Shown: positions 28,761 to 46,946, numbered from the stretch's first letter. The stretch is 64,000 bases of DNA from an uncultured cyanobacterium (GCA_963706595.1 OY970166.1:3616001-3680000), one strand, 5' to 3'. Notes: generated by a model from the letters alone, not told the origin. Numbers and translations are program-made.

Positions 28761-30565
28761 AGCTTTCCCTCTTTTTTAATTTGGAGTCCTACATCTAGAA
28801 TCAATTGTGATTGATGTTTTTATCTAAAATCTAAAATCATGGGACCTAGCTTTGACGGTGGTAGTATCATCCCTTGTTTGGAATTTTACTGCCAATTTAA
28901 CTGGCTTTAGCAGAAAAATTTGTGCTTATTAAAAGCTAATCACAGACATTTGTGCTGATATGTAAAAAGCATTAACAAGAATTACAAGTTGGTTGGGAAA
29001 ATAGGGGTGAATTTAACTAGTCAGCATTTTTATCTGCCTAATATATATCTAGTTAAACTAGCCCCTAGAGATAAACCGTGTTGCAGAAGCAGCTTCTTTG
29101 TTAAGCGTACTCAATTTTTCACCACAGATATATGATCAATTTTTGGATAGACTTATCTCTTCTTTCGCTCTTCCCATTTATTAATTCTCCTTAACTGTCA
29201 TACTGGCTGGCAGGATTATGCTTTAGTAATAAATTATACTTTAGTAAATTTGGTAAAATAAAAAGACAGATTTTAGGATTTTAATATATATATTGCATCT
29301 CTTTTCTAATAACAGGTAAGATTTTTGTGTAATAGCAAGTATTATATGTTGCGATCTGCCACTGTATTAAATCTCAGGGGAGTTTAATTGATTCTTATGG
29401 TAATGAGAGAAAAATTCATTTGCTTCAAAACGTTTTTTTATACATGTACTTATAGTCAATATAGTCATTTTTAAACAACAAATCCACAATATTTAGACTG
29501 ACTATGAACCTTGTAAATCTTAATGGACAAAGCTAAACAATAACAATATTTCAATAATTGATGATTATAGTCTTTAACTAAGATTATTTTCTATTTGTAT
29601 AAATAAATACTTACAAATTTAGGAATAAAAAAAATTACTGATTTAAAATCTAGTCAATGGATTACTGTTAACAAAACAAATACATCAAGCTATTAACAGC
29701 TTATAAATTTTCTGCTACATAAAATTCTTGCCATAAAAATTTTGTAATTATCAATACATTCATTCTTTACATTTTCTATTACTTTTGAGAGATGTTTTAG
29801 TAACACGTATATAAATGTAAAAAAAAAGGTATATCTCATGACAGATGACTTAGTACAATATTCTATAGTTAGATGTCTGAAGGAGTAAAATGATTAAAAC
29901 TCAATTTATAATCAGTAAATTGTTTATTTAGTCGCAATATGATATGACAAAATTATCTAAATTAAATTAGACATAATACATTTGTTTGAAATCATGTTTT
30001 AGCAAAAATATATTGTTCTAACTGTAGTATCGTCTTAACCAAACTGTTTTTAACCTAAATTAAACTTAGCACTTAGTGATATATAGGATTTTAAACTATA
30101 AGCCAAAGTGCTATTTGGTATATATATATTACCTACAAAATTCTTGGCTTCACCATCAAAAAAATGTTATTTATTTATGTAAACAAGTTTAATATTACTA
30201 ATTTAGATTGATAAAATCAGGTGAGGAATAGCAATTAACCTGAGAATATTCATAATTAAACTCATTTTTTGTAAAAGTGCCGGGTAATCAGCACTTTTAA
30301 GAAATTATGATGATCAAAACTTCGGTGACTCGATTCCCAATTGATAAAAAATAGTGAGTAGGGATATGAATGCTGGCAATTATAAATTAGCGAAATCTGA
30401 TGATTCATTAAAAGTACAGCCAGAAGCGAAGCTGAAATTTGCTCATTTACTGGTCAAATATTTTTGCTGGAAATTCCCTTTATCTACATAACTATAGATG
30501 ATTAACGCCAGGAGTTTGACTGTAATTTTGGGTGTGAGAGAAGTGATGAAGTAGTAGAGGGGAGC

Positions 30566-32098
30566 ATGTACAAGTGGACTGACGAATCAAAAAATATTCA
30601 ACAGCATTTACCACGGGAAATTGCTGAACTGAAGAAAAAGGAAGCACAGATCCAAGAATCCCTTTCTCTGCTTCATTCTATCCTGGAATCTACTGCTCAT
30701 GGTATTGTTGCAGTCAGTCTTGAAGGAGATATTCTTTGCTGTAATCAGAAATTTGTGAATATGTGGCAGATCCCAAATTCTGTGATGCTAGCCAAAAACT
30801 ATCGTCAATGCCAAGCTTTTTTGGAGAACGAACTCAAATATCCAGAAGCATATAGCCAGATTATGCGGGAAGTATCCAGTCAACCTGATTTGGAAAGCTA
30901 TGATATTTTAGAGTTAAAGGATGGGAAAATTTTTGCTCAATACTCTCAGCCTCAGTGCTTGGGCGGCAAGATTGTCGGTAGAGTATGGAGTATTTGGGAT
31001 ATTACTGAATCCCAGCGAACAGAAGAATTACCACAGTTTAATCAAGCTAGCTTGTGTACTTTAGCAGAAACGACCAACGCTAGTATTTTTGTGATTCAAG
31101 GCTTGAAGTTATCTTACATGAATCCGGCGGCGGAGGTACTGACAGGCTATACAAAAGAGGAACTACTAACTGGGTTTGATGCGCGCCAATTGTTCAAGAA
31201 CAAAAAGCGGAAGCAGGTAAATAATAAGGATTTAGAATACCAGGAAATGAAAATCCTGGAAAAAAACGGTACAGAGCGCTGGTTAGCTTGTGCAGTAGGA
31301 ATGCTTGATGAGCAAGAAACACCAGTGGAAATGATTGCAGGTATTGATATCACCGAATACAAACAAGCAGAATCAGACCTTAGCCAAACTTTAGCACAAA
31401 TCAAACAACTCAGCGAACTCAAAGCACACTTCATGTCTATGGTTTGCCATCAATTCCGCACTCCCCTAAATGTTGTTTCATTCTCCAATAGCTTACTCAA
31501 AAGACATATTCATGGATATAGAGACGAAAAAACACGACCCTTACTGGATCACATTCAATCAGGTATTGAACAGCTGACTAAGATGTTGGATGATATTCTG
31601 TTCTTCGCGAAAGCAGAAGCAGCCACAGTTAACTATGATGCTAAACCAGTGAATTTGGTTGAGTTCTGCAAGTCCCTAATTGCACAAATGCAGACAAGTG
31701 GTTGCGAGAACCGGATAAATTTTGTGAGTCAAGGTAGTTACTTAACAGCCTGTATAGATCAAAAACTGCTGGAGCCGATGATGAGGAATTTGCTTGACAA
31801 TGCCATGAAATATTCTCATGCGGGCAGCGTGATTGATTTTAAACTGTTCTGTGAGTGTGGGAAAGTAGTTTTCGAGGTTAAAGATAGGGGTATTGGCATT
31901 CCTATTGCCGATAAACAGCGATTATTTGAACCATTTTATCGAGGTAGCAATATTCATAATCTGCCCGGTACTGGACTAGGTTTATCGATTGTTAAAACCC
32001 TTGTGGACTTACACCGTGGTCACATTGCGGTGGAAAGTGAAGTTGGTGTCAGTACAACATTTACTATCATGCTACCAGCAGTCAAATCAAATTTCTGA
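30566..32098 (+). CDS. PAS-domain sensor histidine kinase (resembles the scytonemin-associated type)
   Basis: Two PAS domains, H-box CHQFRTPLN, NLLDNAMKYS, DRGIGI, GTGLGL. Confidence 0.9.
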   Translation: MYKWTDESKNIQQHLPREIAELKKKEAQIQESLSLLHSILESTAHGIVAVSLEGDILCCNQKFVNMWQIPNSVMLAKNYRQCQAFLENELKYPEAYSQIMREVSSQPDLESYDILELKDGKIFAQYSQPQCLGGKIVGRVWSIWDITESQRTEELPQFNQASLCTLAETTNASIFVIQGLKLSYMNPAAEVLTGYTKEELLTGFDARQLFKNKKRKQVNNKDLEYQEMKILEKNGTERWLACAVGMLDEQETPVEMIAGIDITEYKQAESDLSQTLAQIKQLSELKAHFMSMVCHQFRTPLNVVSFSNSLLKRHIHGYRDEKTRPLLDHIQSGIEQLTKMLDDILFFAKAEAATVNYDAKPVNLVEFCKSLIAQMQTSGCENRINFVSQGSYLTACIDQKLLEPMMRNLLDNAMKYSHAGSVIDFKLFCECGKVVFEVKDRGIGIPIADKQRLFEPFYRGSNIHNLPGTGLGLSIVKTLVDLHRGHIAVESEVGVSTTFTIMLPAVKSNF

Positions 32099-32152
32099 GT
32101 TCAGCAAAGTCTTTGTTAATTGTTTCTTGCCCAAAATTTTAGGGATAAAAAA

Positions 32153-32971
32153 ATGCTCCAAGAATCGAAAACAATACTGATAATTGAAGATCATGCTACT
32201 ACTCGCAATCTTTATGTTGCTGGTCTTGAGGCTGAAGGTTTTACCGTCATAAGTGCAGAAAATGGTCGCGTTGGTATTGAAAAAGCACAAACCTATTTAC
32301 CTGATTTGGTGGTTTGCGATATTGTCATGCCGGATATGGATGGTTATGGCGTTCTCCATCAGATGCGCCAAGATCCTCTAACTGCGATTATTCCCTTCAT
32401 TTTTCTCACAGGTAGTGACCATCAGACAGATGTTCGTAAAGGCATGGAGTTGGGCGCAGACGATTATCTGACTAAACCTTCTACTTTAGAGCAATTACTC
32501 AAGGCGATCGCGATCCGATTAGAAAAACAATCTCTTTTGCATCGCTGGTATGCGGCTAAATCTCATCAAATGCCAGAATCAGTACCCGCAAATACAACTC
32601 CATCTGTCACCTCTGAGTCCATCTTTCCCGCCAGTCGCCATCTCAAAGAAGTTTTCGACTACATTGAAGCTAATTATCATCGAGGAATTACTTTATCTAA
32701 TGTGGCTGAGGCTGTTGGTTATTCATCAGCTTACTTAACAAGTAGAGTCAGGGATAAAACAGGTCACACTGTTAATGGTTGGATTGTCAAGCGCCGCATG
32801 GCCGCAGCCTGTCTCTTATTGAGGGATAGTGACCAGACAATAGAGCAGATTGCTACAGCCCTGGGCTATCAAAATGCTTGTCATTTCTCTCGCCAGTTTC
32901 GCCAACATCACGGCATACCTCCCAAAACTTGGAGAAAAAACAATGAACTTTCTCAAGTTCTTAGCCATTAG
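32153..32971 (+). CDS. response regulator with AraC-type HTH output domain
   Basis: IIED, CDIVMP.MDG, DDYLTKP; AraC motif IA..LGY.NA.HFSRQFR..HG.PP. Confidence 0.92.
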   Translation: MLQESKTILIIEDHATTRNLYVAGLEAEGFTVISAENGRVGIEKAQTYLPDLVVCDIVMPDMDGYGVLHQMRQDPLTAIIPFIFLTGSDHQTDVRKGMELGADDYLTKPSTLEQLLKAIAIRLEKQSLLHRWYAAKSHQMPESVPANTTPSVTSESIFPASRHLKEVFDYIEANYHRGITLSNVAEAVGYSSAYLTSRVRDKTGHTVNGWIVKRRMAAACLLLRDSDQTIEQIATALGYQNACHFSRQFRQHHGIPPKTWRKNNELSQVLSH

Positions 32972-33009
32972 AAGCCGCAACATGAAAACTATGCACCTTT
33001 AGGTCGAGG

Positions 33010-33330
33010 TTAACTGTTTTTGGGCTTTGTCAATTGCTGCACCACTAATTGGATTGCCAAAGCTAACAAACCAATTGCAACTATACCAAATATTCCAGTT
33101 CCCAAAGCAACTACACCGACGACTAAAGTCCGCACAGCAGCACCAATGTTTACAGCTATGGGGTTATCTGAATGGATAGGTTTAGCCGCAAAAGTTGTGG
33201 CGATGGATATCATTAGCGAATACATCGCATATCCTAATCCTCCAGCAAATATTGCGCCCGTTATACAACGCAATGGAGTTGGCGGAACCGGATTTTGCGC
33301 TTCTGCTTCTGTTACGTTTGAATCACTCAT
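33010..33330 (-). CDS. DUF3082 family membrane protein
   Basis: TPLRC..GA, NI..AVRTLV.G...L.T.IF. Confidence 0.75.
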   Translation of the reverse strand: MSDSNVTEAEAQNPVPPTPLRCITGAIFAGGLGYAMYSLMISIATTFAAKPIHSDNPIAVNIGAAVRTLVVGVVALGTGIFGIVAIGLLALAIQLVVQQLTKPKNS

Positions 33331-33499
33331 ATCTTCTTAGTGTCTTAGGATCTTGGTGGTTAATACTAATGGTTTAAGGAAATTCGTGTGCCGAAAACCC
33401 TTGTAGAGACGTTCCATGGAACGTCTCTACACTCCTTAACCAAAAAGTATTGTCTTGGTAGTAGGTTTCGACTTCGCTCAACCCAAGGAAAAAACTTCC

Positions 33500-34453
33500 T
33501 TAAACTGATGATGCCACCTGAATGCCATCTGTAATTGTCCGCGTTACAAACAATTCTAAATCTTCATCAGGAATTGCGGCTCTCATTTGTAGTTTAACTG
33601 CTTGTGCTTGTTCTTCAGACTCCACTAGGGCAAACACTGTGGGACCAGAACCAGACATCATGGTTCCTAAAACCCCTGCTTGAGTGGCAAATAATTCTCG
33701 CAGTTGTAAAACTTGAGGATAAGCTGGTAAGACGACACGTTCTAAATCATTGTGCAGTTTTTGGGCAATTTCTCCGGCATCTTGATTCAGGATAGCTTTA
33801 ACTATTGCTCCAGAATGAACTGCGGCCGCACGCGCTGCTAAATTTTCTGTATCTTTGAGATAAGAACTGCCAAATTCTTGGCGATAGGTTTTGTACGCCC
33901 AAGCTGTGGAAACTTCCAGACTGCGATATTTTGCCAATACGAGATATATAGTATCCAAACTTGGTAAAGGGGAAAGTTGCTCACCTCTACCTGTCGCAAT
34001 CACTGTGCCACCAGCGACACAAAAGGGGACATCTGAACCCAGAGTAGCACCCAATTCTTCTAATTCGGGTTTTGTTAGTCCCAGGTTCCATAATAAATCT
34101 ATCCCCACCAAGACAGCTGCGGCATTTGTCGAACCTCCCGCCAACCCAGCCGCTACGGGAATATGCTTATTAATCGTAATTTCCACACCCCCGTATTTAG
34201 CCAAGGCTTCGGGAAATTTCGCCGCCATGAGTGCTGCGGCTCGGTATGCTAAATTACTTTTGTCTGTGGGTACTTGTGGGTGCTTGCAGTTGACGTGAAT
34301 CGTGTCAGTGCTGAGAGATTGCACATTAATTTCGTCTGCAAGATCGATAGTTTGGAGTATCATCGCTAACTCGTGATAACCATCGGGACGGTCAGTGATG
34401 ATTTCCAGATATAAGTTAATTTTAGCAGGAGCAATTAGATTGTATGAACGCAT
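33500..34453 (-). CDS. ispE: 4-diphosphocytidyl-2-C-methyl-D-erythritol kinase
   Basis: APAKINLYL, PVAAGLAGGS, GSDVPF, MSGSGP. Confidence 0.97.
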   Translation of the reverse strand: MRSYNLIAPAKINLYLEIITDRPDGYHELAMILQTIDLADEINVQSLSTDTIHVNCKHPQVPTDKSNLAYRAAALMAAKFPEALAKYGGVEITINKHIPVAAGLAGGSTNAAAVLVGIDLLWNLGLTKPELEELGATLGSDVPFCVAGGTVIATGRGEQLSPLPSLDTIYLVLAKYRSLEVSTAWAYKTYRQEFGSSYLKDTENLAARAAAVHSGAIVKAILNQDAGEIAQKLHNDLERVVLPAYPQVLQLRELFATQAGVLGTMMSGSGPTVFALVESEEQAQAVKLQMRAAIPDEDLELFVTRTITDGIQVASSV

Positions 34454-34519
34454 ATCAGTTATCAGTTATCAGTTATCAGTTATCAGGGGTCAGTTATTGG
34501 GAATCAGTTATCAGTCTGT

Positions 34520-35344
34520 TTACTGTTCACTGTTCACTGTTAACTGATTTACTAATGTTACCCATTGCTGAACGCTGAGGTCTTCGGCTCGAACTTGGGG
34601 ATTTATTTCTAATTGTTCCAGTAATTGGGTCAGGCGATCGCGTTCAACTAGAGATTGCAAATTATTTCTTAACATTTTACGTTTCGCCCCAAATCCCAGT
34701 TTGACCAAAGTCTCAAATTTGCGGGGGTTCAGTGCTGGTGTTGAAATCTGCCGGGGACGCAACCGCACAACGGCTGAATCTACCTTTGGTGGTGGGTAAA
34801 ATGCACCTGCGGGAACTGTGCAAATAAATTCACAATCAGCTAAATACTGGACACGCACACTCAACGCGCCGAAAGTTCGGGAACCAGGATTAGCATATAA
34901 CCTATCGGCTACTTCCTTCTGCACTAATAGCACGATAGAGTCAAACGGTTCGGGGTTAGGGTTGGCGATAGTCCCTAGCAACTTCTCTATAATTGGTCCT
35001 GTGATGTTGTAGGGAATATTGGCTACTACTTTGTTTTGCTTTTGAAAGTTGGGAAAGGCTGCTAACGGCGATGCTAAATCTAAGGTGAGGAAATCCCCTT
35101 GCAATAGTAAGAAGTTATCTTTTTTACCCAGTTCCTTGGCTAACTGTTTGCATAAATCAAAGTCTATTTCCACTGCTACGAGCGATCGCACCAAAGGAAG
35201 TAAACGCCGAGTTAGAATACCCGTACCCGGACCAATTTCCAGCACGCGATCGCTCTCGTGACATTCTGCTGCTTTAATAATTGCATCCAGTGCCTTTTCA
35301 CTTTTGAGCCAATGTTGAGCAAAAGACTTGCGCGGTCTAATCAT
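34520..35344 (-). CDS. rsmA: 16S rRNA m6,2A dimethyltransferase (KsgA)
   Basis: LEIGPGTG, ANIPYNIT, PPPKVDSAV. Confidence 0.97.
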   Translation of the reverse strand: MIRPRKSFAQHWLKSEKALDAIIKAAECHESDRVLEIGPGTGILTRRLLPLVRSLVAVEIDFDLCKQLAKELGKKDNFLLLQGDFLTLDLASPLAAFPNFQKQNKVVANIPYNITGPIIEKLLGTIANPNPEPFDSIVLLVQKEVADRLYANPGSRTFGALSVRVQYLADCEFICTVPAGAFYPPPKVDSAVVRLRPRQISTPALNPRKFETLVKLGFGAKRKMLRNNLQSLVERDRLTQLLEQLEINPQVRAEDLSVQQWVTLVNQLTVNSEQ

Positions 35345-35543
35345 TAATTTTCCTGAATATATCTAATTTTAAGGTTTTTTATTTAGAAGTTCCTAATCAG
35401 ATTGACTGAATATCTTGTGGAATCGGCATACTTCGACAAGCTCAGTACAAGTCTTGCCCGTCCTCATTATGCAAGTTACTGGCATGATATATGATACCAA
35501 GTCCGGTTGAATACGAAACGCGGAACCCCACCAACCCATCTAT

Positions 35544-35617
35544 TATCTCCCCTCCTCGCTTGCGGGGAGGGGTTGGGGGTGGGGTTCCATGATTGTGGTA
35601 ATCGTAACTAATTAACT
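35544..35617. repeat. dispersed ~75-bp repeat (second copy at ~39485-39557; core also inside the 1878 element and at ~12200)
   Basis: TATCTCCCCTCCTCGCTTGCGGGGAGGGG..GGGG.....GATTGTGGTAATCGTAA.TAATTAACT in both copies. Confidence 0.8.
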
Positions 35618-35702
35618 GCACATGAGATGTGAATCAAAGTTTATAGCGTTTTAGATGTATTTATGCGAAAATACCCGGTAAATACCAGCATTTTCTTGCA
35701 TC

Positions 35703-36089
35703 ATGTCATATACACCTTCAGACAGCATTTGGATTGTTACCGATGACACTCCCCAAATTTCCACTCCTAACGGTACGAAAGGCGGAACTAACAATACAAG
35801 AGGCTGGGGCGAAGAACTTCCAAAGGATACCAGCAAAGGGGTAGGAGAAGCCGTTAAGGTTAGCACTGAAAAATTAGAGCAAGAAATGACCCACTTTCTG
35901 CAAGTGGTGGGGCGCTTATTTAACCGTGCTGAACAACAAGCTAAAGTTAACTCTGGGATGCAGTTAGATGAAATTGAGTTATCGGTGGAAATTAGCGGCG
36001 AAGGTGAAGTTAAATTAATTGGCAACGGTGCAAAAGCTGGAGGAAAAGGAGCAATTAAGCTGACATTTAAACGGCAAGAATCAAAATGA
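35703..36089 (+). CDS. Pepco/Trypco-like small peptidase-associated protein
   Basis: L.EIELSVEISGEG.VKLIG.G.K.G.KGAIKLTFKR; stop is 1 bp before the caspase gene start. Confidence 0.7.
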   Translation: MSYTPSDSIWIVTDDTPQISTPNGTKGGTNNTRGWGEELPKDTSKGVGEAVKVSTEKLEQEMTHFLQVVGRLFNRAEQQAKVNSGMQLDEIELSVEISGEGEVKLIGNGAKAGGKGAIKLTFKRQESK

Positions 36090-36090
36090 G

Positions 36091-38169
36091 ATGGTAAAAA
36101 ATTGGGCGATCGCCATCGGCGTTAACCAGTATGATTATTTGCAACCGCTAAATTATGCCAAGCGGGATGCACAGTTAATCCAGCAGTATCTCCAAAATCA
36201 GGCGGGGTTTGAGCAGATATATTTTTTCTCAGATGATTCCCCTGATATTGACGGAAAATCTACTCGCCCAAACCGTGCTAACCTATTGCGAGTTTTGCGG
36301 CAAAGATTTGAACATCCGTTCATGAGTGCGGGTGATAACTTTTGGTTTTTCTTTAGTGGTCATGGCATCAGACACGCTGGACGTGATTATCTCATGCCTT
36401 GCGATGGCGACCCAGAAGATATTGAAAATACAGCAATTGCCATTAATTATGTTACTGAACGCCTGCGTCGCTGTGGTGCTGATAATGTGGTTTTGATTCT
36501 AGATGCCTGTCGTAGCTTGGCTACTCGTGGCGGGGAAGGTATTGGGCGACAAGCGGCTGAGGAAGCACGTCAACAAGGAGTTATTAGCATATTTTCCTGT
36601 AGTCCCCAGGAGTATTCTTATGAAATTGAGGCATTACAACAAGGTGCTTTTACCACAGCGTTACTAGAAGGGTTAGGAATTCAAGGTAAATGTGCCACTG
36701 TTGAAAGGTTGAACCAGTATTTAAATTCTCGTGTGCCGGAAATTGTTCATCAATATAAAAACGGCAAACAAACGCCTTATGTGATTGCCGAGCCTGTAAA
36801 TAAATCTCACCTGATTCTTGTACCCCAATATGCAACCTTAGCCGATATCGCCACACTCAAAAATGATGCTTATCAGGCAGAAGTAAACAGCAATTTTGAA
36901 CTAGCAGAACAATTATGGATGCGGGTGTTAGCTGCGGCTTCAGGGCAGGATACAGATGCAATCAAGGCTATTCAAAGAATTGCACGGTTGCCAAATAATA
37001 CTGAAGGGTTGCGAACAAATTCGGAATCTGGCAATCAAAAGAGTAGCAACAGCACAAACAGCCCTAATGACTCTAAATCGGTAGAGACTCCAAAACCATC
37101 TAAGGAAATTCTAAATAAACCTGCCAGTAAACCGATTCCAATTCCTCCTCAAAAGCAAAATTCACCAGTTCCGAAAACTCCTGATAATAGAGAGCCGAGA
37201 ATTAAAACACCCACGACTCCCAGACAGTCCACAAATTCTTCACCACAACCACCAATAATAACTAACTGGTCACGGCGGAACGTGATTAAAAGCGTTGGGT
37301 TTGCAGGTGCTGGTTTGGGTTTAGTAATTTTAGTACCGCGCCTCTGGCAATCTAATTCACAAACGGTAGATAATTCACAAGTTGTAACTGTAGATAGAAC
37401 GGGGAAAATCATAGACCGCCGTAATGTTGAAGCGAAATCTTCCATTGAAGACTTAGGGAATGGTGTCACCTTAGAAATGATGCAGATACCAAAGGGAACT
37501 TTTACAATGGGTTCACCAGCAGGGGAAGCAGAACGACTTGACGATGAAAGTCCCCAGCGTGATGTAAATGTTCCTGAGTTCTTGATGGGTAAATATCCAG
37601 TTACCCAGGCACAGTATCAAGCAATTCTGGGGACAAATCCTGCTCATTTTAAAGGTGGAAAAAGACCTGTAGAAACAGTAAGTTGGGATAATGCAGTAGA
37701 GTTTTGTGAAAAATTGAGCCAGAAGACAGGAAAAATTTATAGGCTACCCAGCGAAGCCGAATGGGAATATGCTTGTCGTGCGGGAACAACTACACCCTTT
37801 TATTTTGGTGAATCGATAACCACAGATTTAGTTAACTACAACGGTAACTATCCCTACGCCTCAGCCCCAAAAGGTGAATATCGTGAACAAACAACAGATG
37901 TAGGAAAATTTCCGCCAAACTCTTTCGGTTTGCACGATATGCATGGTAGTATATGGGAATGGTGTCAAGATACATATAATAGTAACTACCAAGGTACGCC
38001 CAAAGACGGTAGTCCGTGGTTAGATGGTAGTGATAAAAACATCAAGCTGATGCGTGGCGGTTCTTGGAGCTACGATGCTAGGACTTGCCGTTCTGCTGTT
38101 CGCTATGGAGTTACCCGCGCGAATCTGAGCAACCATGCTGGTTTTCGTGTTGTTGCGGTGGTTGCGTGA
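36091..38169 (+). CDS. caspase-like peptidase (C14) + TM + FGE-sulfatase (CLec-fold) protein; DGR target
   Basis: FFSGHG and LDACR dyad; Pro/Ser linker; TM segment; F.MGS, RLPSEAEWEYACRAG, FGLHDMHG..WEWC, RGGSW, GFRVV. Confidence 0.92.
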   Translation: MVKNWAIAIGVNQYDYLQPLNYAKRDAQLIQQYLQNQAGFEQIYFFSDDSPDIDGKSTRPNRANLLRVLRQRFEHPFMSAGDNFWFFFSGHGIRHAGRDYLMPCDGDPEDIENTAIAINYVTERLRRCGADNVVLILDACRSLATRGGEGIGRQAAEEARQQGVISIFSCSPQEYSYEIEALQQGAFTTALLEGLGIQGKCATVERLNQYLNSRVPEIVHQYKNGKQTPYVIAEPVNKSHLILVPQYATLADIATLKNDAYQAEVNSNFELAEQLWMRVLAAASGQDTDAIKAIQRIARLPNNTEGLRTNSESGNQKSSNSTNSPNDSKSVETPKPSKEILNKPASKPIPIPPQKQNSPVPKTPDNREPRIKTPTTPRQSTNSSPQPPIITNWSRRNVIKSVGFAGAGLGLVILVPRLWQSNSQTVDNSQVVTVDRTGKIIDRRNVEAKSSIEDLGNGVTLEMMQIPKGTFTMGSPAGEAERLDDESPQRDVNVPEFLMGKYPVTQAQYQAILGTNPAHFKGGKRPVETVSWDNAVEFCEKLSQKTGKIYRLPSEAEWEYACRAGTTTPFYFGESITTDLVNYNGNYPYASAPKGEYREQTTDVGKFPPNSFGLHDMHGSIWEWCQDTYNSNYQGTPKDGSPWLDGSDKNIKLMRGGSWSYDARTCRSAVRYGVTRANLSNHAGFRVVAVVA

Positions 38170-38170
38170 G
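38045..38170 (+). repeat. DGR variable region (VR)
   Basis: Ungapped match to 38340-38465 with 18 mismatches, 14 of them opposite TR adenines. Confidence 0.9.
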
Positions 38171-38339
38171 GACACTTTGCTCTTTAGCCCTCTGCACCTC
38201 TTATTCTTTTCACTTCTTTCCCTCGCCGTTAGGCGGAAAAAAGTTTTTTATCAAATATCTTGATACAAAATCTCTTTTACACTAGATTTAATCAAATTTC
38301 TCATTGAGTTGAGAATTTGAGGATGGGATAGGCACTTTT

Positions 38340-38465
38340 AGCTGCTGCGTGGAGGTTCTTGGAACAACAATGCTAGGAATTGCCGTTATGCTGTTCGCAA
38401 TAGGAATACACGCGCGAATCAGAACAACAATGTTGGTTTTCGTGTTGTCGCGGTGGTTGCGTGAG
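38340..38465 (+). ncRNA. DGR template region (TR)
   Basis: Non-coding copy of the target 3' end with 10 in-frame AAC/AAT codons, 8 of which differ in the VR. Confidence 0.88.
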
Positions 38466-38722
38466 CGCTCCCAAAGGTCAGAGCTGATAAGTGGGAATTT
38501 ATCGGGCGTACAATCGGGAGTCCAGACCTGTCCCAGCGAGGAAGGCGACGACCTACGAATATAAAACTGAGTCGGATAGCTTGGTAGGTTGCAAAACCGA
38601 AGACTTGTCCGACCCAACCAAATCTTTTCTAATTAAAGAAGAAAGCACTAGCGTTAGCTGTTAAATTTGTTAACTATTTAAAACGTTTTATCTTAACAAA
38701 ACTTAATTATCACAGTTACCAG

Positions 38723-38760
38723 ATCCCCGACTTCTTTGAGAAGTCGGGGATTTATTTATT
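38723..38760 (+). terminator. strong hairpin (REP-like or terminator) downstream of the TR region
   Basis: ATCCCCGACTTCT-ttg-AGAAGTCGGGGAT followed by a T-rich tract. Confidence 0.55.
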
Positions 38761-38965
38761 AAGTTCATAAGTAAAGTTTATTGTATTTTGAACGCAGCAT
38801 TTTCTATGGGCTGTTAGTCTTTTATTATGTGAGCAGTTAAGCAATTCTTGTCTGTCTAAGCATTTATGCCAAGTTCATCATGATTGATTAACTCTTCAGG
38901 AATCTCTCACAAATCTATATTCACTAAATACACAAATTTCCCAAGTCTTAATTACTAGCACTGTT

Positions 38966-39286
38966 ATGACTCATTACTCTCTTGATTGGATTGAAGCCTG
39001 GTGTCAAGAAAACGGCTGGACAGAATTATTTGTCGAGCGGCGCAACAACTATTGGGCTTTTCCTCCTGGATGCGTAATGCCTGAACCAATTCCCCATCAC
39101 GTCCTCAACTTAATTAAGGCTGAAAAGGGTTTCACTGTTGAGGAAAGAGTCTGGTCAGCATCAGCAGTAATTAGCACAATTGTAGCTATAATTTCTACAT
39201 TTGTATTTAAGTGTCCCATGCCATTAGTTTTTGCCTTCGCTTTTAACGCTGTGACTGTAGCTCAACTTGAAATTGAAGATGCATAG
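38966..39286 (+). CDS. conserved cyanobacterial membrane protein
   Basis: WI..WC.ENGWT.LF......WAFPPG.VMP.PIP plus a C-terminal TM segment. Confidence 0.75.
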   Translation: MTHYSLDWIEAWCQENGWTELFVERRNNYWAFPPGCVMPEPIPHHVLNLIKAEKGFTVEERVWSASAVISTIVAIISTFVFKCPMPLVFAFAFNAVTVAQLEIEDA

Positions 39287-39556
39287 CCGCAAGCCACAAG
39301 GCGGAAGTCAAAAGTTTACCCTGAGCGAAGTCGAAGGGTCAAAAGTTTTGAGTGTAGTTTTTAAGTCTTGGCGATTAGAATATTGCTACCGCAACGCCAA
39401 GGGCGAACGCATCTACACAAACGAAGTCCGCCTGCGCGGACTAAGAGAATGCTTGAAAAGTTTTGCCTGTGCAAGCCTATATCTTTATCTCCCCTCCTCG
39501 CTTGCGGGGAGGGGCTGGGGTGGGGTGGTAGATTGTGGTAATCGTAAATAATTAAC

Positions 39557-41503
39557 TTATACTTCTTTCAAATAGTAATTAAACCGTTTCCGGAGTTTTT
39601 CCACACTCATATCTTGAGTCCAGTATTCCACTAGCGCATGACCAAATGCCCAGGCGTTGCGGTCAGGTGCAGCAGAGTTTTCTAGTAGCAATGGCCAGAG
39701 AGATAGCAAATCAAAGTTGAGAGGATTAACTTTACCTGTATGCAATAGGGAAAACAGATCATAGGCCATTTGCAGTTTACCAATTACAATCGGTAACTGT
39801 TCCACAGGGATTTGCTCTGCTAGGAGATACGCCAGAGTGGGAGAACCAGTTGATACTGTGGCGATGAACTGAAGCACAGGACTTTTCAACAGAGCAGTTA
39901 GTCCTTGAGTGGTCGCCATTTGGAAGGTGTAATGGTCGATGATTTTGGCAGATGCGGCAGTACGAGCTTCTAAGTTACGCAAAAAGCGGGCTAATCGCAG
40001 TTGTTTAGCTGGGGCGATCGCATCTACAATTTGCAGAGATAGTGTTTCTACACCCCAGGCGGCTCGACCTGTTTTGATATCACTGGTAACAATTGGTAAT
40101 ACTAGATTACAGAAGTTATCCAACAGTTGGGCGCGGTATTCGGTAGCGTTGCGAATAGCAATTTCTTTGGGACGATTTCCCGATTCCCAATTGTATGGCG
40201 GTTCCCACTCGCGGATAGGACGAAGACGATCTACTTGGGTAATCACGGCGATGGTTGGTAAATCTGCAACTTCCGCCCGCATATCTTGGAGAAAATCTAC
40301 ATCCATTTGTAGGGCGGGATCAAGAGCCGGGGTAACTAACAGTAGTAAATCTGCGTTTGTAGCATAATCAAGCACCAAATTTCGCAAATCACCACCGTTC
40401 ACCTGTTCATAACCTGGGGAATCCCACAGCGTTAAACTTTCCCCGGTGGAACTTTGCCAATGATAATTTTGAATCTGATCAGTGCTGGGTAAAACATCCA
40501 CCTCTGCGAGATCAGCCTGAAATAGAGTATTAATCAAGCTGCTTTTTCCCGAACCTGTGCGCCCGACAATGAGAATATTTACAGGTTTTTGGGCAACTTC
40601 CTCGGCTGGTTCGGCTTTAGTTAAAATTTCTCGCAGGTTTTGAGTCTTAGCTGTGGGTAGAGTTGGTGTAGAAATACTGGCTTCTGCAACTGGTAATTTG
40701 CTACCACTGTAAAGTGCGATCGCCTGACGGCATAAATTCCGCAGGGCATTTTCCCGCAGTAGTTGACCTAAATTTACTAATAACTGCTGAGTTGCTTGGT
40801 TAGTATAACCCTTAGTAGCTTGCTTGGCCACTGCGACTACAGGATTAAATAGCCACTGCGCCCAATTCCATGCTTGCCAAACTTTCCGAGCCGATGGCTC
40901 AATTTTGCGATAGACTTCATAAGCTTGATAGGCTTGTCCAACGGTAATCTGATTTAGTGCTGGTGATAACTTCTGCATCCACTGATCTAAGTCATCCATC
41001 GTTCCCCGAATTAACCCGTAAGCCTGGGGTATATAAATATTCAACAGGGGATATTGAACTTGAGGATAATATATATGCGCGATCGCTGTGACTAAATCCT
41101 GGCATCTTGTCCAAAAAGTTTGCCAATCTTCCCAAATCAGGCGATCGCTTTCTGCTGCTTTGAGAATTTGTTGCAGTGCGATTTCTGCCTGTTTGATATT
41201 GTCGCTTTGGGCTGGTAGTCCTACTGGCTGATCTGCCGCAGATTCTAACTCTTCTGTGACTTCTGCCAAAGCAGCTTCTACCATATTGATTTGAGGTTTA
41301 GTCCATCTCACCAGCAGCCAGCGCCAGCCCACAAATACCAGGGTAAATATACCCCAAATCCAACTAATACCCCAGGTATGAATTTGCATCCCTGCACAGA
41401 TGAGCAAAAAAGTAATAATTAGTGCAATAGGTAATGCTAATACTACCCATTGCCACAGTTTTAATCGCAGCATTTTTTGGTGGTCCGCCCTAATTTTTGA
41501 CAC
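39557..41503 (-). CDS. membrane-anchored GTPase (Era/YcjF-like)
   Basis: GRTGSGKSS, DSPG, TQVD; two N-terminal TM segments. Confidence 0.85.
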   Translation of the reverse strand: MSKIRADHQKMLRLKLWQWVVLALPIALIITFLLICAGMQIHTWGISWIWGIFTLVFVGWRWLLVRWTKPQINMVEAALAEVTEELESAADQPVGLPAQSDNIKQAEIALQQILKAAESDRLIWEDWQTFWTRCQDLVTAIAHIYYPQVQYPLLNIYIPQAYGLIRGTMDDLDQWMQKLSPALNQITVGQAYQAYEVYRKIEPSARKVWQAWNWAQWLFNPVVAVAKQATKGYTNQATQQLLVNLGQLLRENALRNLCRQAIALYSGSKLPVAEASISTPTLPTAKTQNLREILTKAEPAEEVAQKPVNILIVGRTGSGKSSLINTLFQADLAEVDVLPSTDQIQNYHWQSSTGESLTLWDSPGYEQVNGGDLRNLVLDYATNADLLLLVTPALDPALQMDVDFLQDMRAEVADLPTIAVITQVDRLRPIREWEPPYNWESGNRPKEIAIRNATEYRAQLLDNFCNLVLPIVTSDIKTGRAAWGVETLSLQIVDAIAPAKQLRLARFLRNLEARTAASAKIIDHYTFQMATTQGLTALLKSPVLQFIATVSTGSPTLAYLLAEQIPVEQLPIVIGKLQMAYDLFSLLHTGKVNPLNFDLLSLWPLLLENSAAPDRNAWAFGHALVEYWTQDMSVEKLRKRFNYYLKEV

Positions 41504-41738
41504 TCCCTACATCTATACTAAATTTATCCTAAAAAACTTCTATGGAAAGTGAAACTCTAATCAAGACTCGGTTATCGTTTATCTGCTGCGACAATTCGAG
41601 CAAGATACCTTAAACAACATATCGGTAAAAGTAATGTTGCGGTTGCTGAAATATATATTCTACGATCTTCAGGTAGAAGGGAATCTTTCGTTTCTAAATC
41701 ACAAAAATTAATTACCTTATAAGCGGGAGCATCGGCCG

Positions 41739-41870
41739 ATGAACCGATGGATACATCCCACACACTACCAGACTCATCAAATCCACAATCGTCGAAAATA
41801 GTAACTTTTGCTCGTATTGGCGTTCGCTCTTATTCTCGAAAAGCAGATTCATCCACGTAGTGTTAAAAAA
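41739..41870 (-). pseudogene. IS4-family transposase N-terminal fragment
   Basis: Minus strand reads WMNLLFENKSERQYEQKLLFSTIVDLMSLVVCGMYPSVH, which resembles cyanobacterial IS4-type transposase N-termini (from recall). Confidence 0.5.
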
Positions 41871-41949
41871 AATCCGGGTTAATGCGGGTAGTTACTCCCT
41901 TTACGCAAAACTTTTTGAGATGGTTGACTCGATTATTAAATTAAAAAAT

Positions 41950-42210
41950 ATGATCTCCTCCGATGCTAGTTTAGAAACTAAATCACCTGACAATACAGTG
42001 CCGAAGTTTAACGTTAATGTCGAGTTTCAAATAGCAAAACTATGGCATCAGAAAGGCAAAATTGATCGGGCGATCGCTGGCTATCGCAAGGTGTTAGCGG
42101 TCAATCCCATGCACTGGTCATCCTTGCTGGCCTTAGATGAATTGTTAACGATCAAAGGAGAAGATCAAACAGCGATCGCCCTATATCGTCAAGCAATTCA
42201 AAACCTTGCA
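41950..42210 (+). pseudogene. truncated TPR protein
   Basis: TPR-like A..W.QKGKID.AIA.Y.K.L..NP and AI.LYRQAI, then runs antisense into the GT2 gene. Confidence 0.55.
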
Positions 42211-42710
42211 GTAATCGAATCGGACCAACCAACTCGGAAAAAAGCTTCCCGACGGATCAGCATCGTTCCAATGTGATAACCAGGCATGATCTCTCTGGGG
42301 ATCTGAATTTTCCGTCTAACTGTTTCATCTAAGTCAGGGCTGTAGAATTGGCGAACCTGTCCTAAAACCATATCTAAGTTCGGATTTGCGGCCAAAGCAG
42401 ACACTTGACGCGCTAGTTTATCCCCCATCCACCGATCATCCGAATCGAGAAAGGCTAAGAAATCTCCTGTTGCTAATTTAATTCCCTGATTTCGAGCTAC
42501 CGCCGCGCCTTGATTTGTTTGATAGTGATAGCGAACCAAGGGAAAACTACGGGCGATTGCTCCCCCACCGTCTGTAGAACCATCATCAACAACAATCACT
42601 TCATCCGGGGTAACGGATTGGGTGAAGATACTTTCCAGCGTCTCGACTAAATAGGCTTCCCGGTTAAAAATCGGAACTATCACACTGATTTTAGGACGGA
42701 CATTGTTCAT
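42198..42710 (-). pseudogene. glycosyltransferase family 2, C-terminally truncated
   Basis: ISVIVP.FN, VDDGSTD, ARN.G, FLDSDD; ends after FFRVG, whereas the paralog at 46959 continues about 75 aa. Confidence 0.65.
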
Positions 42711-42773
42711 TTGTTTGTCAATACTTCTTCGGTGGTATATTGGTATGATACAAGTTAAAAATTCAGCTTAATA

Positions 42774-43883
42774 GTGTCTAGTCATATTGTTAAAAATCTC
42801 TATCCTGAAACAGAATTGATTTTATCTTGCGCTCGCACTCACATATCCGATGGTCTAGCGGAGCAAATCCAGTATCAAATCCAACAGGATATAGACTGGA
42901 ATTACTTGTTATCAATGGCAGAAAAGCATCGCGTTATACCTTTGCTATACCACAGTCTTAAGGTTGTCAGCCCCCAGAAAATTCCCACGGAAATTAGCAC
43001 TAATTTAAGAATGCGCTTTTTGGGAAATACGCGAACGAATTTAATATTGACCAATGAAATGCTGCGTTTGTTAGATATTTTTGCCACAAATAATATTAAT
43101 GTTATTCCCTACAAAGGCACAATTTTATCTGCTTGTTTTTATGGTAAAACATCCTTCAGGCAGGTATGGGACATTGATATTCTCGTCGATGAAACAGATG
43201 TTTCCAAAAGTAGAGAATTATTACTATCGGAAGAATATATAATTAAAACTGGTTATGATCGAGAACAGACTTTTTACCATCCTCAGAAAAAAATAGAAGT
43301 AGATTTACACTGGGGTTTGACTCCCTATTATTTCCCGGTCAACCTAGAGTTTAAAAAACTATGGTCAAGAACAAAATCCTATCCACTTTCAGGTGTTGAG
43401 GTGAAAAGTTTCTGCCCAGAAGATTTATTGATTATCCTCTGTCTTCAAGTAGCTAAAGACTGTTGGGAAAGACGGCAACATCTGGAGCAGTTAGCTAAAG
43501 TTTGTGATATTGCAGAGTTGTTGAGAAGTTGCCCAGAATTAGACTGGTTAGATGTGATTAATGAGGCTCGTGGGCGAGGTTTAGAAAGAATACTGCACTT
43601 TGGTTTATATCTTGCCAAAACCCTTCTAGAAGCTGATATACCTGAGATTATTTGGATTGAAGTTCAAGGTGATAATTATGCGATTTCTTTAGCTTATCAA
43701 GTTTGCTCTCAATTATTTGGAGAAATCGATAATACTGTTACTAACCCTAATGATAATTCTATTTTCAATCTAAAATTTAGACTCAAACAATTAGTCTTTT
43801 ATTTGCAGATGAGAGAACGTCCTCAAGACTGGGTGAAGCATTTTCTAGTAATTGCAGGACTTACGCACAGAAGTTATCTGTGA
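42774..43883 (+). CDS. nucleotidyltransferase family protein (NTP_transf_5-like)
   Basis: DW..L...A.KH.V.PL, KG..L...Y......R...DIDILV, VDLHW, PED. Confidence 0.8.
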   Translation: MSSHIVKNLYPETELILSCARTHISDGLAEQIQYQIQQDIDWNYLLSMAEKHRVIPLLYHSLKVVSPQKIPTEISTNLRMRFLGNTRTNLILTNEMLRLLDIFATNNINVIPYKGTILSACFYGKTSFRQVWDIDILVDETDVSKSRELLLSEEYIIKTGYDREQTFYHPQKKIEVDLHWGLTPYYFPVNLEFKKLWSRTKSYPLSGVEVKSFCPEDLLIILCLQVAKDCWERRQHLEQLAKVCDIAELLRSCPELDWLDVINEARGRGLERILHFGLYLAKTLLEADIPEIIWIEVQGDNYAISLAYQVCSQLFGEIDNTVTNPNDNSIFNLKFRLKQLVFYLQMRERPQDWVKHFLVIAGLTHRSYL

Positions 43884-44151
43884 GGATAAAGTGTAGGGGT
43901 GTAAGGGTTTTACTCTTGTACATTTTTAACTTTTCATCTTCTGCCTTGTCATAACGACAATTTTTAACAACGACCTACTTAAATAAAGATTTTCAGGTTC
44001 AGAAAATAAAAGATGCAAGAAAAAAGGTAAAATAAGTAAAAATCCTTAAATCAAGGTGCATCAAGACGTACAAAAAAAAGCGACAAGATATGTTGTATTA
44101 CACCGAAGATACCCTCTATCAAATGTTAAGTAATATTTCGCCAGTGGTATC

Positions 44152-45318
44152 ATGATTTTCTGGAAAAAAAGGTCAATTTTACTCATTTCGACTTTCATAC
44201 TCCTTGGTATCAGTTTAGCTTACTTGGGCAAAGGATTTTATATGCTAGCTTTTGCTGGCAGTCAGGAGGGTGCGGGAGATTTGTTAGAACGCTGGAAAGA
44301 GCAACAGTATATTTATTTAAACACTTATCCTTATTACATGGACAGCGCAGATATCGATCCGCGATTAGGGAAAGTTATTTCGGGAGGATATCCGCCTTGG
44401 GCTTTTTTCACGGGATTTTTCATATTTCCTAATATTTCTTGGACATTAACGTGTTTCTATCAAGTTTTCTTAAATATCTTATCTCTTGGTATTTTGAGTC
44501 GATTCGCCTATCAAATAGGCTTACCGTTCGGCCAAATTTCCGCTTATTTTTTCGTTGCGTCTTGTCTAGCAATTAGTAGTCATTCTACTACGCTCGGTCT
44601 TGGTCAGTATGGCATTATCATTAATGCGTTCCTGATTAGTGTTTACTATTGTGTTCAAACGAGGAAAAATATTCTTGCTGGTATCTTCATGGGAATAGCT
44701 CTAGCCAAACCGAATATTTCTGCACCTTATATCTTAAGTCTCATTATCCATCGTCGGCTCAAACCAGTATTTATCGCTTTTGCTTATATTATTTCTGCGA
44801 CCTTTTATATCGCTTGGTTGACAAAGCTAGATTTTGTTAATGTCTTTTCCCGGTTTTTAAAGCAAATTAAATATGTAGCTGATGATGGCTTTTCAGGCAT
44901 TAATATTCTGATCAATTTGGGAATTAATCAAGAGATTGCTATTTTATTATTAATTGCGATCACAACGGGTGTAAGTATTGTGGTTTTCCAAAAACTACGA
45001 CATACCTCCCTGTTAACACTTTTCGCATCCGCATCCGTCATCGGTCGAGTATTCATCTATCATCGTGTCTATGATGATTTAATGTTAGTTTTTTTGCTAT
45101 TAGCTTTATTACAACTCGCTTTCCAAGTTCCCAATCGGTATAATATCGGTAGCGTTTTCTTGCTTGGGTTAACTCTATGGATTCCTGCGAGTCTGCAAAA
45201 TCTCATTCCTTATTGGTCTAGTTTTCAACTGTTGGTTTGGCTAAGTTTGCTATTCTACTTATTAAGTAATTCATTAACTAATAAAAGTGGAGAATCTCAG
45301 AGCAAGAGTCCATTTTAA
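44152..45318 (+). CDS. membrane glycosyltransferase, GT87/DUF2029-like
   Basis: YPP, GQ, AG....IA..KP, YHR.YD; polytopic membrane protein. Confidence 0.7.
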   Translation: MIFWKKRSILLISTFILLGISLAYLGKGFYMLAFAGSQEGAGDLLERWKEQQYIYLNTYPYYMDSADIDPRLGKVISGGYPPWAFFTGFFIFPNISWTLTCFYQVFLNILSLGILSRFAYQIGLPFGQISAYFFVASCLAISSHSTTLGLGQYGIIINAFLISVYYCVQTRKNILAGIFMGIALAKPNISAPYILSLIIHRRLKPVFIAFAYIISATFYIAWLTKLDFVNVFSRFLKQIKYVADDGFSGINILINLGINQEIAILLLIAITTGVSIVVFQKLRHTSLLTLFASASVIGRVFIYHRVYDDLMLVFLLLALLQLAFQVPNRYNIGSVFLLGLTLWIPASLQNLIPYWSSFQLLVWLSLLFYLLSNSLTNKSGESQSKSPF

Positions 45319-45444
45319 CAGCAGTTACTAACCATTATATAAAACCTACTCAAATCTACTTTGAGCAGGGAGAAAATGTAACTGAATACTGCTGTCACTT
45401 GCAACTCGCTCCAATCAACGGGTTAAATTAGGGATTCTTCTTTC

Positions 45445-45725
45445 TTTTATATGACGCAAGTGCCAATACCGCCGTCATTGAATGTATTGCTAGGGCAACT
45501 CCTTTGTTAGTCAACCCTTTATCGGCGATTGTGGAATATTTAGGAGAAAATTACCCCCTGTACTTCAATACCCTAGAGGAAGCGGCAGAAAAAGCGATGG
45601 ATCTAGAACTCCTTCGTCAAGCTACTGAATATTTAAAACACTGTGAAACCCGACAGAAACTATCTGCGGAGTATTTCCTACAAAGTTTCCAAAACAGTGA
45701 AGTATACCAACGCATCAAGCTATAG
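45445..45725 (+). pseudogene. C-terminal fragment of a glycosyltransferase-like gene
   Basis: LYDASANTAVIECIARATPLLVNPL...YLGENYPLYF with no N-terminal part or start context. Confidence 0.55.
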
Positions 45726-45783
45726 TGCGTGTGATAAAAGATTCAAGATTTGATGGAATAGAAATAGTCAGCAGGATGGGAAT

Positions 45784-46946
45784 ATGGAAACAACCAAGGA
45801 GTCCTTGTCTCAAGCGGTTGAGCAACAGATGAAACTCGCCCAAGTATGGCAAAACAGAGGAAAAATTACCCATGCGATCGCCAATTACGAAAAAGCGATT
45901 CAACTGCAACCAGATTATCTACCCCCTTATCTCCACCTCGTGCAATTACTTGTGCAAACGGGACAGACACAACAAGCCATAGATACTTACCGGCAAGGAA
46001 TAGAAACAGCGATCGCCAAAGTTTGGTTTCCGCCCCATCAAGCCAGGGAAGAGTATCGAAAAGCACTCAAACAACGGCAAGAAATCGGCCAAGCACCAAG
46101 AGTTTTACTTTATACTAATTGTCCTGGAACTTATGGAGCAGAACAAATCAGTCACGCGCTCATGCTTCGACTTGTGAACTCAGGGTATGAAGTAATCTGC
46201 GTTCAAAGTCAAGCGGATCATCATTTGATTCAAGCTAGACAAGCTCTGGGTATCGAACATATCTGGCTGAAAGATGACGCATATCAATTTGGTTATACCG
46301 TCGGCAATGCTTTGGAAGTAGCGGAAATCAATATCTTGGTATTCCCTGGGATGGGGTGGTGATCTTCACGGCTGCAAGGATGTATCCAGTTAAAGGGTAT
46401 CAACATCAGGTGGAGGCGATTAAACAACTCCGACATCTGCCAATTTGGTCACGGCTTTATTTTGTTTGGGCTGGTTCTGGAGCTTTACCAGTGCAACTGC
46501 AAGCAGATTTAGAAGCACTAGGAGTTGGTGAGCAGGTAAAATTCCTGGGAGAGCGAGCAGATATTCCAGATTTACTAGCGGCGGCAGATATTTTTTTATT
46601 GCCCTCTCACGTTGAAGGAATGCCCTTAGCAATTATGGAGGCGATGGCCAAAGGTTTGCCCGTCGTTGCCTCGGCTATCAGTGGCATTCCAGAGGAATTG
46701 GGAGATACTGGCAAACTGCTATCAGATCCAACTATCAATGCGCCAGCGACGGTACAAGAGATTGTGGAGATAATTCAGAAATGGGTTTTGGATAGCGATG
46801 TGCGTCTGCTGGCAGGACATAACTGCCAACAAAGAGCGATGGAGATGTTTCGAGAGGAAAGAATGCTAGATAGCTACGAAAAGGTAATTCAAGGGACTAT
46901 CTATCAAGAACTTTACCGAAAAACGAGCCAAAGCCCCTGGCTTTAG
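45784..46946 (+). pseudogene. TPR + glycosyltransferase family 4 gene with internal deletion and frameshift near 46328
   Basis: TPR and GT4 N-domain start (YGAEQ) in one frame; QYLGIPWDGVVIFTAAR...KG...EGMPLAIMEAMA in another; the middle of the N-domain is missing. Confidence 0.7.

Follow-up and report, generated by a model that had tools for sequence, protein, structure and literature searches.

Introduction

The closest described counterpart of the locus reported here is all3226 of Nostoc sp. PCC 7120, a caspase gene with one RT-less TR/VR pair, which the passage devoted to it in Vallota-Eastman et al. (2020; PMC7517822) reads as a remnant. Orthocaspase-CLec DGR targets in cyanobacteria are described in the same paper, and its supplement includes a peptidase C14-CLec remote target, BAB74925.1, which by its accession offset is presumably all3226. 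By its description that gene resembles ours.

In Bordetella phage BPP-1, the DGR RNA has a short upstream leader, a spacer of ~140–150 nt, a 'cPRT Stop' duplex between upstream and downstream segments, and a 9-bp Avd-binding stem with a GNRA loop, the latter reported as prevalent in cyanobacteria (bioRxiv 10.1101/2023.10.23.563531). A hairpin stands behind the VR (PMC3240598). All of these features have counterparts at the present locus. However, in BPP-1 both avd and brt are encoded at the locus itself and a tail fibre of the phage is the target, whereas the cassette described here has neither gene.

Remote targets and 'degenerate' DGR loci, as described for Treponema, Trichodesmium and Thiohalocapsa PB-PSB1, also have their machinery encoded elsewhere, and in multicellular bacteria they include CLec sensors joined to the effectors of conflict systems (PMC5758913, PMC10907252). 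A conflict-sensor model has been presented for such targets (PMC10907252). In these accounts the template of a remote VR is the RT-linked TR at a different locus, whereas our cassette appears to use its own TR and to borrow only the enzymes.

Pepco-protease death modules form a further point of comparison. Streptomyces Pepco is a β-barrel that kills once its partner protease cleaves it, and FGE is named among the sensors fused to Pepco-linked proteases (PMC12642450). As in our locus, Pepco lies directly upstream of the protease. The differences are that the tested system is a Streptomyces trypsin-like Avs4, whereas our protease is caspase-like; that the Pepco described there has a charged C-terminal tail that is cleaved, whereas ours has a short tail and a ~45-residue N-terminal extension; and that DGRs, where that paper treats them, are tied to EACC1 and not to Pepco.

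DGR surveys start from the RT (PMC7517822), and RT-less cassettes are therefore missed or dismissed as remnants. In a search of openly accessible papers and the main texts of bioRxiv preprints, no conserved RT-less cassette using its own template RNA was found beyond the sentence on all3226. The point of interest here is the RT-less architecture, the VR/TR pair and the caspase-CLec type of target having been published (PMC7517822). In contrast to the single case of all3226 as described there, the RT-less state is conserved across Nostocales, the structured RNA appears to be under purifying selection, and there are signs of recent use in trans. We propose that the locus is a DGR cassette of non-autonomous type, for which a mobile RT/Avd acts in trans, and that it diversifies the sensor of a probable death module and is dormant in the source strain. 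We assign this reading a probability of roughly 0.7.

The repeat pair

The window analysed is a 64,000-nucleotide stretch from an uncultured cyanobacterium (GCA_963706595.1, OY970166.1:3616001-3680000), and positions given without a genome name are counted from its first letter. The variable repeat (VR; 38045..38170, + strand) forms the 3′ end of the target gene. The template repeat (TR; 38340..38465, + strand) is offset from it by 295 nt downstream, and the two constitute the longest direct repeat within 30000-46000. They align over 126 nt without gaps and with 18 mismatches. Of these, 14 fall on adenines of the TR, where 29 of the 126 nt are A (hypergeometric P = 1.0e-7). From RGGSW to GFRV the TR contains 10 AAY codons in frame, eight of which are altered in the VR, and its theoretical capacity is up to about 10^14.5 VR peptides.

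A preliminary description, made from the sequence alone, had reported this alignment and these codon counts, and had attributed the VR to adenine-specific retrohoming. The counts were reproduced, and the 14 of 18 mismatches at TR adenines speak for that origin. However, the adenines at 38353 and 38388 are private to this TR, the VR holding the family consensus base at both, so that at least two of the 14 may reflect drift of the TR rather than retrohoming. The second copy was also rightly called non-coding: a stop a few codons before RGGSW closes its frame and no FGE domain is joined to it, which rules out a translated paralog fragment.

The locus is not a complete (autonomous) DGR: it has no RT and no Avd, neither being found within 26000-50000. 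The extent originally given, 36091..38465, does enclose both repeats, but the cassette is longer, and takes in a hairpin, a leader and a spacer RNA of ~150 nt (38466-38615), as described below. The Pepco gene upstream (35703-36089) also belongs to the module.

The target gene and its neighbour

The target gene (36091..38169, + strand; Pfam PF00656 and PF03781) encodes 692 residues, arranged as a caspase-like protease (residues 4–233), a low-complexity linker, and a C-terminal CLec/FGE-sulfatase domain (residues 462–688, PF03781), and the VR thus sits at the 3′ end of a CLec-fold gene. Motifs place the catalytic dyad at His91/Cys140, and it is present in 64 of 65 orthologs drawn from the best 80 of 256 loci. 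The CLec domain matches the Treponema variable protein 2y3c (E 2e-24). The domain matches agree with the earlier identification of a DGR template/variable pair on a CLec domain of FGE-sulfatase fold fused to a caspase.

Between the protease and the CLec domain there is a twin-arginine-like motif with a hydrophobic segment (residues ~394–416; 37270..37338, + strand; hydropathy peak 1.88), which is possibly a membrane anchor. The segment is carried by only 32 of the 65 orthologs (29 of them with RR; from the best 80 of 256 loci), and such an anchor would therefore be optional.

The preceding gene (35703..36089, + strand; PF24393, E 4e-38) encodes a 128-residue Pepco protein, a putative pore-forming death effector activated by proteolysis. 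It ends 1 nt ahead of the caspase start and so adjoins a protease with intact catalytic residues. Pepco is likewise found upstream of most orthologous caspase genes among the best 80 of 256 loci. The protein extends only ~4 residues beyond the last conserved strand. PADLOC recognises nothing in the module other than a generic caspase model.

By analogy with the systems described in the Introduction, the target probably acts as sensor-protease in a cell-death (conflict) module of the Pepco type. In the likely sequence of events, a foreign ligand binds to the variable CLec domain and the caspase becomes active, whereupon Pepco would be cleaved and the cell would die, the cleavage of Pepco and the role in defence being presumed.

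The junction and the template RNA

Immediately behind the VR is a pyrimidine tract with a GC hairpin (38171..38245, + strand; stem 38224-38235, loop GTTA; DNA fold z −2.3), which is conserved behind the VRs of both RT-less and full DGRs. By analogy with the role described in PMC3240598, the 38224-38235 structure is likely to be a homing hairpin or cruciform.

The junction that follows (38246..38339, + strand) ends in the TR leader, and lies where Avd and RT are found in complete DGRs of the same clade. These mostly have the order target, hairpin, Avd, RT, TR and spacer, while one full DGR (L024, in genome G012) has the order target, TR, spacer, Avd and RT. In local alignments, one side of the 170-nt VR-TR interval matches the post-VR hairpin and pre-Avd DNA of full DGRs, and the other side matches their last RT codons and TR leader. 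The cassette therefore looks like the product of a clean deletion of Avd and RT. A promoter-like site at 38260-38288 is at chance level (1 found vs 1.0 in shuffles).

The spacer (38466..38615, + strand) was folded as a consensus of 27 sequences. On the + strand, it contains a 9-bp stem with a GGGA loop, of the Avd-binding (GNRA) type, at 38484-38505, a short stem at 38538-38555, and a long 3′ stem at 38569-38615. Between the first two, 38527-38535 pairs with the leader at 38324-38332 (−16.3 kcal/mol). Averaged over 39 loci this leader-spacer duplex has −14.9 kcal/mol, compared to −13.7 for cross-paired and −9.8 for shuffled sequences, a locus's own pair thus being only slightly better than cross pairs.

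Compensatory changes occur at 25 of the 35 predicted pairs in the 27 sequences, which come from RT-less and RT-linked loci, and the window spacer retains 33 of the 35. Counting 33 pairs, 95.8% of cells pair, which is above all 500 shuffles and all slid controls in a test that is inflated by relatedness. The single-sequence fold is no better than shuffles (z −0.5), and the structure rests on covariation; no Rfam family matches the spacer. On this basis the TR is still embedded in an intact DGR RNA, with leader duplex, GNRA stem and 3′ stem. A 274-nt metatranscriptome contig spans 38306-38579 at depth 21 vs 4 in the gene; as contigs are unable to show expression, no weight is placed on it.

RT, Avd and template repeats in the source genome

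The source genome (G000) is a single contig of 5.57 Mb, 94% complete, from which plasmids may be missing. It has five RT matches, only one of them of DGR type (4623926-4624840, about 970 kb from the window locus), placed behind the single Avd of the genome (4624841-4625197) and a 533-residue CLec target. This RT has 304 residues, compared to 352–370 in eight full-length relatives; it matches them only to about residue 293 and is without ~60 C-terminal residues that are conserved in them. No TR or spacer follows it. In the BPP-1 structure the RT thumb contacts the template-primer and a spacer element (bioRxiv 10.1101/2023.10.23.563531), and by analogy the truncation would abolish enzyme function. 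The four other matches (two identical 557-residue ORFs, and ORFs of 748 and ~1190 residues) were rejected as DGR RTs, with at most ~27% identity to it. The preliminary description missed that its TR/VR pair on a caspase-CLec gene stands at an RT-less locus, in a genome with a single DGR RT, truncated and lacking a TR.

The ortholog of the Avd-RT locus (G000:C1:4623926-4626962, − strand) in genome G006 (L097) is truncated at a different point, its RT being cut after 128 residues and fused to a spacer remnant, and in G076 the RT match stops at residue 304. Together these cases point to repeated RT loss.

The genome holds just two TRs, both RT-less. The second belongs to a sister cassette (L007; G000:C1:4450690-4454235, − strand, with the TR/spacer part at 4450690-4451290), which has its own TR and spacer and a 1023-residue CLec target, following a 334-residue ATPase-like gene (MoxR-like by inspection). 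Here 13 of 14 TR/VR mismatches are at adenines. Over a 99-nt core, the non-A mismatches of the window VR number 2 against its own TR and 14 against the sister TR, which rules out the latter as its template, and those of the sister VR number 1 against its own TR and 13 against that of the window. The window locus is thus no remote (VR-only) target, since its VR has its own TR and both TRs of the genome are RT-less.

Several further CLec genes were noted. A kinase-CLec gene (G000:C1:3872355-3874157, − strand) has a VR with 16 adenine and 3 other mismatches to the sister TR and no hairpin behind it, and would appear to be a former remote target or a collapsed copy. Others (G000:C1:820199-820528, 1870930-1871702, 4508661-4510536 and 645826-648858) match neither TR; several are followed by a similar pyrimidine tract and hairpin, and the 1871-kb gene has a frameshift within its VR-like region.

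Given that the genome's one DGR RT is truncated and lacks a TR, ongoing diversification in the source strain is unlikely, and the cassette is probably dormant there. The window repeats carry 4 non-A mismatches over 126 nt; the TR has its private adenines at 38353 and 38388; and at 38393-38395 both repeats read GTT where the consensus TR has AAT. These details suggest that some time has passed since the last retrohoming and that drift of the TR has set in. Sequencing runs were also searched: none contains the source strain, the best sharing 0.16 of words, and the four inspected consist of contigs of relatives, which are unable to show VR variants. Seven pattern matches were found in viral contigs, none with RT, Avd or FGE.

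The state of the source strain (truncated RT, non-A mismatches, private TR changes) is what one would expect of a decaying remnant, that is, a former full DGR from which RT and Avd were removed once a good variant was fixed, leaving the TR as a functionless relic. This is the published reading of all3226 (PMC7517822), and it also fits with the lack of a full RT in most carrier genomes and the lost or broken TR of many orthologs. We nevertheless consider it unlikely. The loss of RT and Avd is ancient, as shown next, and yet TR adenines and spacer have been kept, and are 4–5 times more conserved than synonymous sites. In addition, VRs have been re-diversified between sister taxa and between near-identical RT-less copies in one genome (G002).

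The ortholog family across Nostocales

A DNA search gave matches in 29 of 41 genomes (the source genome and 40 relatives). Orthologs were defined as the best 80 of 256 loci matching the caspase domain, which avoids selecting on the feature being tested. The Pepco-caspase-CLec gene recurs across Nostocales, and many of these orthologs adjoin ksgA, as does the window locus. No RT or Avd was found in the fetched DNA of the best 80 of the 256 orthologous loci, which implies that their loss is ancient.

Among these best 80 of 256, 27 have VR, TR and spacer, one has kept its TR but not the spacer, 25 are collapsed, their VR running straight into the spacer, 12 retain just the VR, two have a displaced spacer, and 13 have no VR. 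The TR is therefore kept in 28 of 80, and is absent from 39 of the 67 that bear a CLec domain. Mapped on the caspase tree, the collapsed state requires 18 changes, and strong branches force at least 13 of these. Loss of the TR by VR-TR recombination thus recurs, while intact cassettes still persist across the tree. An assembly artefact is unlikely to lie behind the collapsed loci, which are present in complete genomes (L149, L189). In one collapsed kinase-CLec gene (L051/L099:3925-4023) the C-terminus is an unmutated TR with 11 in-frame AAY codons, the crossover having fallen at the repeat's 5′ end.

The spacer is kept at the 25 collapsed loci, and many genomes that give no RT match still conserve the RNA. 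TR RNAs are reported as very abundant in Nostoc punctiforme and Trichodesmium (PMC12691664, PMC6596454). It could be argued from this that the TR-spacer RNA is maintained for a function independent of RT, as a small RNA, antisense regulator or decoy, with diversification being incidental. However, the features that are conserved (AAY adenines, GNRA stem, leader duplex) are the ones that RT and Avd bind or copy, and the spacers at collapsed loci, some of which are truncated, may simply be recent. We regard a second function as very unlikely.

The module is found behind varied N-terminal domains (caspase, kinase and vWA-like), and therefore does move. The TR+spacer state is unclustered on the caspase tree (65 of 500 shuffles are as low), and RT is rare among carriers. 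These three observations would suit a model in which diversification takes place in a few RT-bearing lineages, and VR alleles or TR-spacer blocks are then spread by homologous recombination, which would keep the TRs alike. Against it, the distance between leader+spacer sequences tracks caspase distance, and VRs carry private alleles of their own TR, as quantified below; and action of the RT in trans would still be required somewhere. Such spread seems to us quite unlikely as the main explanation, and a cassette inherited in place and served in trans is preferred.

Selection on the template and use of the variable repeat

Conservation was analysed on loci picked by their spacer, which are biased by that selection, and then again on loci picked by their caspase domain; since these sets share loci, neither is independent of the other. 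Adenine bias is present in each of the 30 RT-less VR/TR pairs examined (P ≤ 2e-3), and seven have no non-A mismatch at all. In 23 ungapped TRs (22 of the 27 TR+spacer orthologs plus the window, five being dropped because of indels or decay), the adenine columns differ by 0.064 vs 0.352 at 4-fold sites of the caspase. With adjacent CLec codons as the neutral control, the values are 0.069 vs 0.327 (29 pairs; L046 dropped because of a VR indel). The adenine columns of the VR are saturated, with a difference of about 0.65 whatever the distance, and all 55 VR peptides recovered from the caspase-picked orthologs (best 80 of 256) are distinct. The TR adenines cannot be preserved by conversion from the VR.

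Leader and spacer diverge at 0.27 times the synonymous rate, and their distance tracks that of the caspase (Mantel rho 0.63, P 0.0005; both for 21 loci), a pattern as would be expected for vertical inheritance under purifying selection. In the spacer-picked loci, the VR shares 113 of 138 lineage-specific non-A alleles of its own TR.

Sister orthologs at a 4-fold distance of only 0.03–0.05 already have saturated VRs (0.72, 0.76). L151 and L159, whose TRs have deletions, hold a VR common to both, with an adenine-column difference of 0.04, and this pair serves as a natural negative control.

The clearest case is G002, which has two RT-less copies 338 kb apart. Their TRs are identical, and in the 600 nt preceding the VR they differ at 2 positions, and yet their VRs differ at 21 positions, all at TR adenines. 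One copy has lost its spacer, so both VRs were probably templated by the TR of the other. G002 has two full-length RTs, both more than 1 Mb away. The intact RT-linked TR of this genome has 26 non-A mismatches to either VR and is thereby ruled out as template.

It may be added that some TRs (L062:3829-3927, L150, and the window at 38393-38395) have VR-type codons at former AAY sites that match their own VR, which suggests VR-to-TR back-conversion or self-homing.

Occurrence of the RT and a proposed model for the cassette

Among 81 genomes in which the spacer or the caspase gene occurs, only 12 (6/41 + 6/40) have a full-length RT of the same clade; many of the 81 are drafts or bins, where plasmids can be lost. 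In G020 (4 contigs, 99% complete) the cassette is intact, and neither RT nor Avd gave a match. Across the carriers, presence of RT shows no association with retention or integrity of the TR: RT-positive genomes include collapsed and VR-only loci, and L175 is RT-positive yet has 4 non-A mismatches. Avd copies with stops are frequent among relatives, and broken Avd and RT fragments are common. RTs of the same clade (67–72% identity) occur on six cyanobacterial plasmids, of which the two inspected carry Avd and CLec targets. The simplest fit would be that gain and loss of the enzyme pair outpace decay of the cassette.

The anatomy of the cassette, its adenine specificity, the RNA structure, the conservation, the collapse and the RT truncation are all evident from the sequences. 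We infer in addition that the RT is used in trans and supplied episodically by mobile elements. In the proposed mechanism, Avd and RT were deleted, with the target, VR, homing hairpin and complete DGR RNA (leader, TR and spacer) remaining. A same-clade RT/Avd elsewhere in the cell, on chromosome or plasmid, would bind the cassette's own RNA, the RT would copy the TR with adenine errors, and the cDNA would rewrite the CLec binding surface. Since RT and Avd come and go, diversification would be episodic. VR-TR recombination would delete the TR and lock the VR for good.

More tentatively, and at somewhat less than an even chance, we hypothesise that Nostocales vertically inherit such non-autonomous mini-DGRs, which await a transient and often plasmid-borne RT/Avd. 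Hypermutation of the sensor in a Pepco-caspase suicide module would be switched on by the visitor and off for good by VR-TR collapse, making this a host-domesticated cassette for episodic adaptive immunity that is invisible to RT-anchored surveys.

If such cassettes do function in trans, filamentous cyanobacteria have a far larger DGR-diversified repertoire than has been counted. A single RT would then serve a number of different templates, and the timing of hypermutation in a lineage would be set by whether it gains or loses a mobile RT. One scaffold bears 55 distinct natural VR alleles (from the best 80 of 256 loci), coupled to a protease and to a Pepco effector with a known killing read-out, so that the ligands of cellular CLec sensors become directly testable.

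Small dispersed repeats flank the module. They comprise a 75-nt repeat pair at 35543-35617 and 39485-39557, a weak CRISPR-DR28-like match, under the Rfam threshold, at 39420-39443, a 15-bp inverted repeat at 38721-38753, and TCAGTTA tandem repeats at 34455-34515.
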